Below are positions 8,969 through 63,630 of a stretch of DNA of 64,000 nucleotides, one piece after another. The notes under the pieces are model-generated. The model saw only the letters and a list, made by a program, of their open reading frames with translations, searched no databases and had not been told where the DNA came from. The translations under genes were made by a program, and so were the position numbers. Positions within the stretch are counted from its first letter, which is position 1. The number at the start of each line of letters is the position of its first letter. Source of the DNA: Eledone cirrhosa (lineage: Eukaryota); contig OZ024753.1 of the NCBI GenBank assembly GCA_964016885.1, forward strand, positions 40,114,001 through 40,178,000. The letters are read 5' to 3'.

Positions 8969-9094
8969 TAGGAACGAAATGGCTTGAGCTCAGCCGTCGG
9001 GGTCCTACTCGTTCCTATTACCCACTCTACTACCGTAAGTATTGAGTACTTTGGTGCGTTATGGTCCATCTGGTTCCTTACCACATTTCCTTCG

Positions 9095-9097
<3 letters not shown>
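8969..9097 (+). mobile_element. Fold-back element family C (PLE-terminus-like), very short inverted stub
   Basis: TAGGAACGA stub joined to the hammerhead 3' half and the 80-nt tail ending TTCGTTA; flanked by (TA)n. Confidence 0.85.
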
Positions 9098-10648: not shown

Positions 10649-10806
10649 AAATATATATATATATATATATATATATGCATTTATATATATACATATATAT
10701 ATATATACATATATGTATATAAATATATATATATATATATATACATATATATGTATACATATGTATACATATATATACATATGTATACATATATATATAT
10801 ATATGT

Positions 10807-10860
10807 GTAATAGGAACCAGTAAGACCCCGACAGCTGAGCTCAAGCCGTTTCGACGGCTA
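10807..10860 (-). mobile_element. Family C fragment (hammerhead 3' half)
   Basis: TAGGAACCAGTAAGACCCCGACAGCTGAGCTCAAGCCGTTTCGACGGCTA between TA tracts. Confidence 0.85.
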
Positions 10861-25073: not shown

Positions 25074-25427
25074 TATAAAGAAAAAGAGATGAAATCGAAA
25101 ATGCAACTGGAGTCTTATTTTTTTTTTAAATATATATATTTATTTGGTTCCTTTACCGGTTTCGCAGTTCTTCTGCTTTTCAAAAGGTGCGTTGAGATGT
25201 GGTTTTTCTCACATCTGATGTGAGAAAAACCACAGACCCTCCATCTCAACTCACCTTTTGAAAAGCAGAAGAACTGCGAAACGGTAAAGGAACCAAATAA
25301 ATATATATATTTGAAAAAAAAATAAGACTCCAGTTGCATTTTCGATTTCATCTCTTATTCTTTATACTTTCACTCGTGTAGGACACCTCGGTTATTTTTT
25401 ATTTTGTAAAAAAAACCTCACTTTCTA
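25074..25427 (+). mobile_element. Fold-back element family E (PLE-terminus-like) in (TA)n
   Basis: ~125-bp inverted arms 25074-25199 and 25242-25366; nested hairpin 25198-25234; single-copy tail 25367-25427. Confidence 0.88.
25150..25187 (-). ncRNA. Minimal type I hammerhead ribozyme motif, U3-A8 variant, palindromic stem III
   Basis: CCUU-UUGAAAA-GCAG AAGAA CUGC-GAA-ACCGGU-A/AAGG. The + arm copy at 25254-25290 lacks one C in stem III. Confidence 0.8.
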
Positions 25428-31288: not shown

Positions 31289-31617
<329 letters not shown>

Positions 31618-35145: not shown

Positions 35146-35708
35146 CGGTGCGATTTATAAATAATAATTGTATTATCATAGGAAGGGGTTTGGAATAAAA
35201 GTAAGACCTGAAAAAAAGTAAGAGAGGAATAAATATCGGACTGGCATTTGGAGGATGTGTTGGAGGTAATGGCGGTGTAAGTGAAATGATGAGGCAGTTA
35301 CGTACTGTAGAAACAGTGAGATGTTTATAGAAGAACCGTACTGTGTCAAGATTGGGACGGGACGAGGAGGGGGGGGAATGTGAGAGTATTTTGTTCCCGT
35401 CCGGTATATATTACGACTATAATTTTTTTAAATTGTCATCGGCCGCTAGTGATGTATGGAGAAGTGCTTGGATGGAAGTATAAAGTAGACCTTTATGAGG
35501 ACGATCGTGATAATGTTGGTGGTAGTAGTTGTAGAGGAGTGTGGTGGTGGTTGTAGAGGAGTGTGGTGGTGGTGATTAAAGTGGTGGCCGTAAGAGGAAA
35601 AACACATTATGGTGATTTTTTTTATCTTTGAGTGATAGAGGGAGCTTTTATAAGAGCAGTAGTTTCAGGTGGTAAGAAATCACCAGAGTGTATATATATA
35701 TATATATA

Positions 35709-35918
35709 TAGGAACGAGTAGGACCCCGACGGCTGAGCTCAAGCCGTTTCGACGGCTAATTCTGGACTAAAATATTTTAGTCCAGAATTAGCCGTCGAAA
35801 CGGCTTGAGCTCAGCCGTCGGGGTCCTACTCGTTCCTATTACCCACTCTACTACCCTAAGTATTGAGTACTTTGGTGCGTTATGGTCCACCTGGTTCCTT
35901 ACCACATTTCCTTCGTTA
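35709..35918 (+). mobile_element. Fold-back element family C
   Basis: Perfect 130-bp palindrome 35709-35838 with no spacer, plus an 80-nt tail. Confidence 0.92.
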
Positions 35919-35982
35919 TATATATATATATATATACACTCCGGTGATTTCTTACCACCATATATATATATATATATATATA

Positions 35983-36095
35983 TTGGAAAAGAGTCAGGAC
36001 CCCAACGGCTGAGCTCCGGCCGTTTCGACAGCTAAGTCTGTTCAGCCGTCCTGACTCTTTTCCTATTACCCACTCTACTACCCTAAGTATGGAGT
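35983..36095 (+). mobile_element. Family C subfamily 2, internally deleted
   Basis: GGAAAAGAGTCAGGAC...GTCCTGACTCTTTTCCTATTACCCACTCTACTACC. Confidence 0.8.
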
Positions 36096-44362: not shown

Positions 44363-44378
44363 TATATATATATATATA

Positions 44379-44442
44379 TAGGAAAAGAGTCAGGACCCCG
44401 ATAGCTGAGCTCCGGCCGTTTCGACAACTATTTCTGAACTAA
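44379..44442 (-). mobile_element. Family C subfamily 2 fragment
   Basis: TAGGAAAAGAGTCAGGACCCCGA..GCTGAGCTCCGGCCGTTTCGACA. Confidence 0.82.
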
Positions 44443-60340: not shown

Positions 60341-60726
60341 GCTGTTGCACTGTCAATATGCATGTGTTGACTGATAATAGTAGTTGCGCTAAACATGAAG
60401 CTGATGGTGATGGTGGTAAATATTGGTGGTGGTATTGGGGGGGGGAGGGGCTGGCAATGAAATTTGTGTGGGTGATATGATATTGTGTGTGTATATGTTC
60501 CTTTATATGTGCTTGTGTATGTATGTGCGTATGTGTACGTGTGTATGTATGTGTGAAAGTATGTCGATGTGGTTGATGATAATGCTTGAGCTGGTGGTTG
60601 AATATATATATATATATATATATATTTATTAAAATAACAGATTAAAGTTTAAGCAAAGAATCGGTGCTTTCACCCTTAACGGGATCTTCTGAATTTTTGG
60701 ATTTTAGTCTTCAAATTTATTATTAT

Positions 60727-60781
<55 letters not shown>

Positions 60782-60858
60782 TTTTAATGCAATGAAATAT
60801 CTATGATCGTCGGCAAATCACTGATGAGGGACTCATTTTATTACATGTTATCCATGCG

Positions 60859-60905
<47 letters not shown>

Positions 60906-60910
<5 letters not shown>

Positions 60911-61287
60911 ATAAATGTGCTGCGTGGTTGTTAATGGGTTACATATGAATAAAGTTAGTCCTTCATCAGTGATCTTCCAACCATCATTGGTATTCAATCG
61001 CTTTAAAGACCATATACCTCCGGTTGGTGCGAGCAACGGCTAAAAAAAGTCGTTGGGACACGTAAATAAAGAGGACACGAGTGTAAACAAACAAAGATGG
61101 TGAAGCAACGAAAAGTGAGGAAGAAGGAGTCAAGTCCCAAATGTCTATGAATTTAAATTCGGTGAAATCGTGTACGTGTCCCAACGACTTTTTTTAGCCG
61201 TTGCTCGCACCAACCGGAGGTATATGGTCTTTAAAGCGATGAAATACCAATGATGGTTGGAAGATCACTGATGAAGGACTAACTTTA

Positions 61288-61294
<7 letters not shown>
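60906..61294 (-). mobile_element. Fold-back element family G
   Basis: 122-bp arms 60943-61064 and 61173-61294, 108-bp spacer, short tail 60906-60942; CTGATGA near the arm ends. Confidence 0.88.
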
Positions 61295-61457: not shown

Positions 61458-61460
<3 letters not shown>

Positions 61461-61753
61461 CGAAGGAAATGTGGTAAGGAACCAGGTGGACCATAACGCA
61501 CCAAAGTACTCAATACTTAGGGTAGTAGAGTGGGTAATAGGAACCAGTAAGACCCCGACGGCTGAGCTCAAGCCGTTTCGACGGCTAATTCTGGACTAAA
61601 TGAAAATTTATCCTGGTATTTAAATAGCCGAGCTTCTCAAGAATTACCCCTTGAGAAGCTCGGCTATTTAAATACCAGGATAAATTTTCATTTAGTCCAG
61701 AATTAGCCGTCGAAACGGCTTGAGCTCAGCCGTCGGGGTCTTACTGGTTCCTA
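61458..61753 (-). mobile_element. Fold-back element family C, longest copy
   Basis: 104-bp arms 61538-61641 and 61650-61753; tail 61458-61537. Confidence 0.92.
61646..61739 (+). ncRNA. Complete type I hammerhead motif (family C), U3-A8 variant, long stem II
   Basis: ACCCC-UUGAGAA-GCUCGGCUA...UAGCCGUC-GAA-ACGGCU UGAGCUC AGCCGU-C/GGGGU; predicted cleavage after 61734. Confidence 0.82.
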
Positions 61754-62536
61754 TATATATATATATATGTATATATATGTATGTAAGTATATGCTTGAGA
61801 GTGTGTTTGTGTGTTTGTGTGTTTGTTTGAGAATGTGTGTCTGCGACGGTAGTTGTATGTGTACATAATTGTGCGTGTGAAATATAGTTTATACGGACTG
61901 TAATTATCGATGCTTTCTAATTCTGTTGATAGAGATTTAGACATCAGCCAAGTGCTATCTCTGCTGACCAGTCTTGTCTTGTCTTTATAATTCTCTTAGT
62001 TTTTAATCTATTGCTGTAGTGTTCCTCTTTCAGATAATATAGGATTCTATTTTCATAATTGATATTTTAATATAATGATTTCGTCTTATAATGATGAATA
62101 TAAAAACAATGCTATATTATTCTAAACAGCTGAAATAACAACAAAGGAAAGTAAAAGAAATACTACACCAACAGTATAAACAACGAAAACACTACAACTA
62201 CGTAGCTATTCGTTATCCTAGAAATAACAGTCAAATTACCCTGAAATTTTACTCTAAATGAATTTATGACATTTATCTTTAATTGGAATATAGAAAAATA
62301 AAATTGACGTTGATGTTATTGTTGTTAACCCGTAGCTGATTGATCTGAGCAACAAAGAATGTTTTTCCAGTCGTGACCTTCCCAATTTTTCCAATGTTTT
62401 GCTAACTTATGTCATATCATTAAAGGTCTCAGATGGTAGGATATGATTTTGGTGATATTTGGCAGTTATTCTTAACAGATTGAGTAACTACTTAGCAGAC
62501 CCATCACACTTGTTGATATAGAAGTAAATACGCACG

Positions 62537-62852
<316 letters not shown>

Positions 62853-62880: not shown

Positions 62881-63056
62881 TAACAAAGAGGGTATGGTAA
62901 GATACCAGGTGGACCATAATGCACCAGAGTACTCAATACTTATGGTAATAGAGTGAGTAATAGGAAAAGTGTCATGGCCCGACGGCTGAGCTACGGCCGT
63001 TTCGGATCTAGCTGTCGAAACGACCGGAGCTCAGCCATCGGGGTCCTGACTCTTTT

Positions 63057-63060
<4 letters not shown>
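62881..63060 (-). mobile_element. Fold-back element family C subfamily 2
   Basis: Tail 62881-62960; diverged arms ending CTTTTCCTA. Confidence 0.85.
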
Positions 63061-63130
<70 letters not shown>

Positions 63131-63335: not shown

Positions 63336-63630
63336 TAAGTTGTTAAACAATATTCGATGATTATGTCAAAGAATGAGTTTTACAGTAGTTTGGAAGCACT
63401 CTACGACAAAAATAATTTTCAGGAGTTATTAATATTAAAATATAAGTATTAATAAAATAGATGTTCTTTTGATCAATTACCTTGATTAAATCTTAACCAT
63501 TTAACATCTCAGGGTATGTCATGTATCATTATATTTTGTCTGACGAGGACGTACTGTTGTACATCAGAAATATGTATAATAAAATGTAATTGATCAAAAG
63601 AACATCTATTTTATTAGTACTTATATTTTA

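Follow-up and report, generated by a model that had tools for sequence, protein, structure and literature searches.

The motif found near the end of the 64-kb stretch of DNA analysed (the window) is almost certainly a type I hammerhead in a pseudo-LTR, i.e., a hammerhead of a Penelope-like element (PLE). It is a motif of known kind and unusually large, and what is distinctive of it is the history of the 3-8 pair, together with a palindrome on a stable stem. As judged from the sequences of the genomic copies, the main lineage of the element likely spread with a mismatched C3·A8 pair and later went back to U3-A8, with the rest of the motif conserved, and these data suggest that self-cutting is weak or optional.

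All the motif parts named in a previous, sequence-only reading of the window were found at their places on the + strand: ACCCC at 61646, TTGAGAA at 61651, CGGCTA at 61661, TAGCCG at 61704, GAAA at 61712, ACGGCT at 61715, TGAGCTC at 61721, AGCCGT at 61728, GTC at 61732-61734 and GGGGT at 61735. The window copy lies within (TA)n, where it forms the right arm of a perfect 105-bp inverted repeat (61537-61641 / 61650-61754). The features are the following:

61460..61536, - strand: 77-nt 'tail' (5' UTR sequence, located 3' of the hammerhead in intact tandems), the long 3' end of the left arm, adjoining (TA)n
61537..61641, - strand: left arm of the 105-bp perfect inverted pair, from the core through the stem I 3' strand, without the stem I 5' strand
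61641..61650, + strand: stem I 5' strand GAAUUACCCC (ACCCC at 61646-61650), mostly equal to the 8-nt spacer between the arms
61651..61657, + strand: core U3 U4 G5 A6 G7 A8 A9, with a U3-A8 tertiary pair indicated by covariation
61658..61711, + strand: stem II domain of 54 nt, with G10.1-C11.1, CGGCUA (61661-66) / UAGCCG (61704-09) and a predicted distal hairpin at about 61678-61698
61712..61715, + strand: G12 A13 A14 A15.1, from the sequence
61715..61733, + strand: stem III ACGGC(U)/(A)GCCGU and its loop, with the palindrome GAGCUC at 61722-61727 (UGAGCUCA at 61721-61728 in the subfamily of the window copy)
61734, + strand: C17, with cleavage predicted 3' of it from the sequence and the hammerhead numbering
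61735..61754, + strand: stem I 3' strand GGGGU, internal loop, UUCC and the short 3' insertion end at TAT/(TA)n

A descriptor of this architecture matched the window once, on the + strand only, versus one match in 100 dinucleotide-shuffled windows searched on both strands. Rfam gave no match above its gathering thresholds across the window, and no hammerhead family on an intact copy even at E<=10; it misses such motifs because stem II is long. The copy had been described as the only whole one, which holds within the window but not in the genome, where 40 of the 40 scored matches (1,355 candidates) were 100% identical over 112 nt. The stem II insert, given as about 50 nt with a long AU-rich loop, has 54 nt from A9 to G12, and the loop closed by CGGCUA/UAGCCG has 37 nt and is predicted to be structured, with an extended stem II and a distal hairpin, and not open. 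Stem I ACCCC/GGGGU is present, and is predicted to extend past its 5 bp by GAA/UUC. The assignment as a PLE hammerhead with a U3-A8 core was borne out by the sequence and by family comparison, and ACCCC-TTGAGAA, checked against genomic copies, is the sequence of the family. That the motif could be a chance or DNA-level pattern (promoter, endonuclease site or by-product of the inverted repeat), and not an RNA structure, is very improbable and largely refuted: it would agree with the missing Rfam match and with the position of ACCCC within the spacer of the fold-back, but the same sequence is present in thousands of non-fold-back copies (ACCCC as a fold-back artefact was rejected), the copies display compensatory changes, and the shuffles gave that single match.

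Elsewhere in the window, the family has left shorter 3' remnants in (TA)n, mostly short-plus-tail inverted pairs, at positions 8974-9095, 10804-10860, 31318-31514, 35706-36095, 44376-44442, 62656-62850 and 62895-63063. At 25150-25300 there is a second U3-A8 hammerhead, a minimal one (UUGAAAA, 13-nt stem II, palindromic ACCGGU), which is present as an inverted pair and belongs to a different repeat family, and inverted remnants with CUGAUGA/CUGACGA, resembling other Penelope-like families, occur at 60690-61290 and 63540-63570.

Full motifs were counted in the 3.0-Gb genome (G000) by exact patterns, with zero matches for the reversed-pattern controls. The genome contains about 7,700 of them (7,710 pattern matches), of which 5,812 (2,892 + 2,920) are U3-A8, 1,821 are C3-R8 (33 of them matching the C3-G8 pattern, which leaves about 1,790 C3·A8 copies) and 77 are U3·G8, while the 3' half of the motif occurs 52,478 times. 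In five fetched arrays, the tandem order was hammerhead, tail, ORF, 1.1-kb UTR and hammerhead, with a period of 3,528-3,531 nt (3.53-kb unit). The motif is non-coding, because the ATG lies 191 nt after the predicted cleavage site at C17. The ORF, of 717 amino acids, contains RT, DKT, CNCPDRSIC, YIG, CNLC and CKH; Pfam gave no match on the ORF itself, and its best homologue carries GIY-YIG. The features of EN+ Penelope-like elements are present (a single RT plus GIY-YIG ORF, tandem and inverted copies, and a tail), as are those of the Hydra clade (DKT, CxCX5C, CxxC/CxH and the (TA)n target), with CCHH absent by reading of the sequence. Naiad and Nematis were dropped as assignments, the C-terminal endonuclease and the motifs fitting Hydra. 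The element can be classed as a young Penelope-like retrotransposon of high copy number whose protein has Hydra-clade motifs, and its many near-identical open ORFs suggest recent activity and a usable experimental system. From one RNA run (word share 0.10) came a single contig of 200 nt, which lies outside the motif, at L083:5384-5517.

Some observations on individual loci can be added. At L083:5787-5987 the frame is open for 67 codons 5' of the ATG, starting from a TGA in loop III, and a short upstream ATG frame lies within the tail. At L230, an old U3·G8 copy appears four times (G000:C440:38330, 64752, 91116 and 117977) with a spacing of about 26.5 kb, which suggests a large segmental repeat in tandem. 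Joins between a CUGANGA half of other families and the 3' half of the present one, apparently chimeras or nested insertions, were found at G000:C4:91626266, C5:114165244, C6:101323211 and C11:11992405.

Covariation among genomic copies, a check that had been proposed for the motif, was run, and stems I and II and the 3-8 pair were found to covary. In an alignment of 34 hand-picked, related copies, stem II displayed three compensatory pairs (GC18/AU13, GC13/UA8 and UA16/AU11) and 32 doubly changed cells, with 0/500 shuffles as high, and N7 was variable while the remaining core positions were nearly fixed. The positions required of a type I hammerhead (N3-UGA-N7-N8-A9, G12-A13-A14, A15.1-U16.1 and H17) are all present. 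A second alignment of 20 rows included a much older subfamily, with a protein 57% identical in the sole coding-match locus of 11; in it, the 3-8 pair was C-G in nine rows, U-A in seven, U·G in three and other in one, and a stem I pair was swapped (CG10/GC6). Stem III is conserved, with changes mostly one-sided. RNAalifold recovered stem II and placed stems I and III in a wrong register. The Watson-Crick 3-8 pair is U-A in the window copy and C-G in the oldest relatives, and it is absent from the C3·A8 copies.

Concerning loop III, the comparison of copies indicates that its palindrome is under selection. Of the first 100 matches to a pattern blind to the loop, 92 had GAGCUC intact (manual count), and each position of the palindrome was kept in 72-75 of 76 copies without the upstream core, part of which had been retrieved with a query containing it; the flanks were split by subfamily. 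A loop variant, CAGCUC, recurs in 4 of the 100 matches listed (G000:C1:570119, 2495636, 9893710 and 14144697), with only the central AGCU palindrome kept. A candidate loop I/II pseudoknot could, by eye, pair as ACCAG/CUGGU in young copies and is not conserved in older ones. The swapped fold described below, considered as a conserved switch, had no covariation support (3 cells, with 327/500 shuffles as high).

The 3' ends of insertions were located in 110 copies with young-type sequence past C17: 48 ended at +18-20 and 50 at +98-100, with six read-through and six elsewhere. Of the inverted pairs, 21/23 had one short and one tail end. Genomic copies continue past C17, therefore the template spans it. 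Anolis Poseidon likewise has two internal RT starts (PMC11167929).

The family contains four states of the 3-8 pair (C-G, U·G, U-A and mismatched C·A), and A8 was present in 100/100 of the C3 copies among the matches listed. A tree was built with 67 copies from 159 candidates, of which 99 had enough upstream sequence and were thinned to seven per type, with position 3 masked. In this tree, 21/23 C3·A8 rows formed a ladder between old and young U3-A8 groups, and their grouping in a single clade (21 rows together, four single-mutant rows left out) was rejected with p-AU 1e-47. Rooting on subfamily 2, for which eight long branches were flagged, gave the order U3·G8, U3-A8, C3·A8 (100/99) and, once more, U3-A8 (98/90), from which the window type and the youngest copies follow. 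Two coding-region trees also placed C3·A8 between U3-A8 groups, with the root near the young side at weak support (86/89). A return from C3 to U3 is required under either root. The ORF is present in the C3·A8 copies, mostly with frameshifts and an identity of about 88-96%, none of the fetched loci having a fully intact C3·A8 ORF; in L171, a direct tandem, both ends have C3·A8. The changes over the C3·A8 interval were 81/319 in the UTR, 9/37 in the insert, 2/30 in the stems, 0/13 in the core and 0/6 in the palindrome, the last two zeros being partly built in by the search patterns. About one third of the 33 C3-G8 matches looked, by eye, like single mutants scattered within the C·A lineage, and the others were chimeras or old copies. 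Arm-to-arm divergence was discarded as a clock, being too noisy for ordering the older subfamilies.

From hammerhead mutagenesis, C3·A8 would be expected to lower activity strongly, and a protonated C·A wobble, similar to U·G, could leave a residual one. The C3·A8 copies would be attenuated, to judge also from other 3-8 mutants. G8C and C3G abolish hammerhead activity (PMC11167929). No paper giving an activity figure for C3·A8 was found in the literature searched, nor any describing natural C3·A8 hammerheads or the sequence of this family in the mostly open literature and the Craig supplement (PMC8557442).

Folding was considered with models that omit tertiary contacts and protein. CGGCU/AGCCG is common to stems II and III, and for the window variant a swapped, inactive fold is predicted with P=0.74 versus about 0.2 for the hammerhead helices. 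In the youngest subfamily, two substitutions flip the predicted balance to the hammerhead (0.72-0.75), and for other subfamilies, the youngest included, a monomer hammerhead fold is predicted with P 0.7-1.0. When the left arm was included, the hammerhead helices dropped to P=0.000, with the window copy predicted to be fully sequestered; it is a truncated, predicted self-sequestered, dead-end remnant. For the window variant, the predicted minimum-energy dimer is a double hammerhead and lies 13.3 kcal/mol lower than two monomers, while permuted, non-palindromic loops gave a mean dimer gain of -8.6 kcal/mol, with 3/156 as good. Overall, mean gains were -7 to -11 kcal/mol with non-palindromic loops versus -13 to -16.5 with the real ones, so that part of the dimer gain, even much of it, is generic. 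The palindromic dimer is predicted to restore the hammerhead from the swapped misfold, in line with the proposal of the sequence-only reading that the RNA might dimerise through GAGCUC, with the palindrome apparently selected.

That reading had as its main idea that the motif could cleave as a monomer. For the window variant this is doubtful, as the swapped fold is predicted to be dominant, while it would be possible for other subfamilies, where the monomer fold is favoured. As a general explanation, a monomer that cleaves itself efficiently and releases unit-length RNA from tandem transcripts, with the palindrome as an optional leftover, seems to us quite unlikely. It would fit with the 5-6 bp of stem III, with the hammerhead as predicted minimum-energy fold in the youngest and several older subfamilies, with the cleavage as monomers of fungal PLE hammerheads having a large helix III (PMC4209133), and with a 5' end left 191 nt before the ATG. 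Nevertheless, genomic copies extend beyond C17, the main lineage passed through a long C3·A8 interval, window-type and C3·A8 variants are predicted to adopt the swapped fold, and the palindrome is conserved while its flanks change.

The mechanism towards which we lean, with a little more confidence than doubt, is that of a slow, dimer- or protein-assisted hammerhead, in which selection acts on the fold and on the pairing of loop III, and insertion does not require cleavage in cis. Reverse transcription would start at two internal sites on an RNA spanning C17, uncleaved or religated, with one cDNA made from each nicked (TA)n strand. Two RNAs would pair through loop III and convert to the predicted double hammerhead, removing also the swapped misfold. 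A low level of catalytic activity would be tolerated, given that the main lineage kept C3·A8 through several subfamilies with the fold constrained, and then regained U3-A8. The support comes from the anatomy of the element, the covariation seen in the 3-8 pair and in stems I and II, the two classes of ends, the C3·A8 ladder with the constraint on the motif during that interval, and the dimer fold. Against it count the several subfamilies predicted to fold as monomers, the generic share of the dimer gain, the weakly supported root of the coding-region tree near the young side, and the use of hand-picked, related alignment rows. In Anolis Poseidon, hammerhead mutants were without effect on insertion in vitro, cleavage needed protein, and the tail was explained by two RT start sites (PMC11167929).

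Catalysis could instead be irrelevant, the fold being a signal for protein binding and RNA pairing through which, much as with the kissing loop of retroviruses, two templates would be brought to both strands of the target. We regard this as unlikely, but it would account for the 9-nt loop with a 2+6+1 layout, kept, as in the HIV-1 DIS (PMC4066764), across subfamilies with proteins 57% identical, for the coincidence of the short end with the end of stem I, for the one short and one tail end of each inverted pair, and for the tolerated 3-8 mismatch. It is less compatible with the fixed U4, G5, A6, A9, G12-A14, U16.1 and C17 next to a free N7, with a 3-8 pair that covaries from C-G to U-A and is restored after the mismatch, and with loop flanks that are not conserved purines. 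It may also be proposed, tentatively and with low expectation, that the motif is mainly a device for kissing-loop dimerisation and RT positioning with deliberately low catalysis: the RNAs would pair via GAGCUC, each one priming one nicked strand at a different start, to yield short-plus-tail pairs, and selection would steer the core off C3-G8 (one step away as U·G and C·A, settled as U-A).

PLE hammerheads cleave poorly, and mutating them left insertion in vitro unblocked (PMC4209133, PMC11167929). The present family offers the genomic counterpart, since a coding lineage likely spread with a mismatched catalytic pair that was later repaired, with all the 3-8 states in one background, and these natural variants can be used for testing what PLE hammerheads do. 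In addition, the palindrome is kept on a stable stem, while it is normally confounded with an unstable stem III, so its role becomes testable alone.

Compared to known systems, the U3-A8 core itself is not new, as it occurs in about 1,300 Schistosoma motifs (PMC4209133) and in other natural hammerheads (PMC3088659). With the Hydra-clade PLEs (Craig et al. 2021, PMC8557442), the element shares RT plus C-terminal GIY-YIG, DKT, the CxCX5C linker, CxxC and CxH, WFNPP, the (TA)n targets and a type I hammerhead near the 3' end. However, in 26/26 listed rows of File S2 the Hydra hammerheads have CUGANGA, a stem III of 3-4 bp, a loop III of 1-3 nt and a loop II of <=10 nt, and the elements are generally <3 kb, while the present family combines U3-A8 with a stem II domain of 54 nt, its stem III is of 5-6 bp and closes a loop of 7-9 nt, the unit measures 3.53 kb, and RWR stands in place of RWK. 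For a long loop II there is a precedent, PLE-X1_sMoe (PMC8557442). The Schistosoma mansoni Cercyon PLEs (Cervera and de la Pena 2014) share U3-A8, the pLTR location, G10.1-C11.1, a palindromic helix/loop III and opposite-strand pairs, but lack a stable helix III, and the available text describes no lineage history of their 3-8 pair (PMC4209133). The minimal PLE hammerhead, an obligate dimer, has an absent or 1-2-bp helix III versus 5-6 bp here, although the palindromic loop III and the pLTR location are common to both. Other literature consulted includes a retrozyme preprint (10.64898/2026.07.22.740005) and PMC6765202, PMC3884650, PMC7151607, PMC2837043 and PMC6257768. The likeness to the HIV-1 DIS (9-nt loop, 6-nt palindrome, usually a 3' A, and predicted conversion to an extended duplex) is one of analogy only, as the palindrome is preceded by AA, CG or UU in this family and its hairpin forms stem III of a hammerhead (PMC4066764). 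Finally, Anolis Poseidon PAc (Frangieh et al. 2024) shares the two insertion ends with the tail between them, 3' of the cleavage site, but its cut site lies inside the ORF and its fold is minimal, while the present motif is non-coding and extended, with a tail of about 79 nt versus the 30-40 bp cited as usual (PMC11167929).
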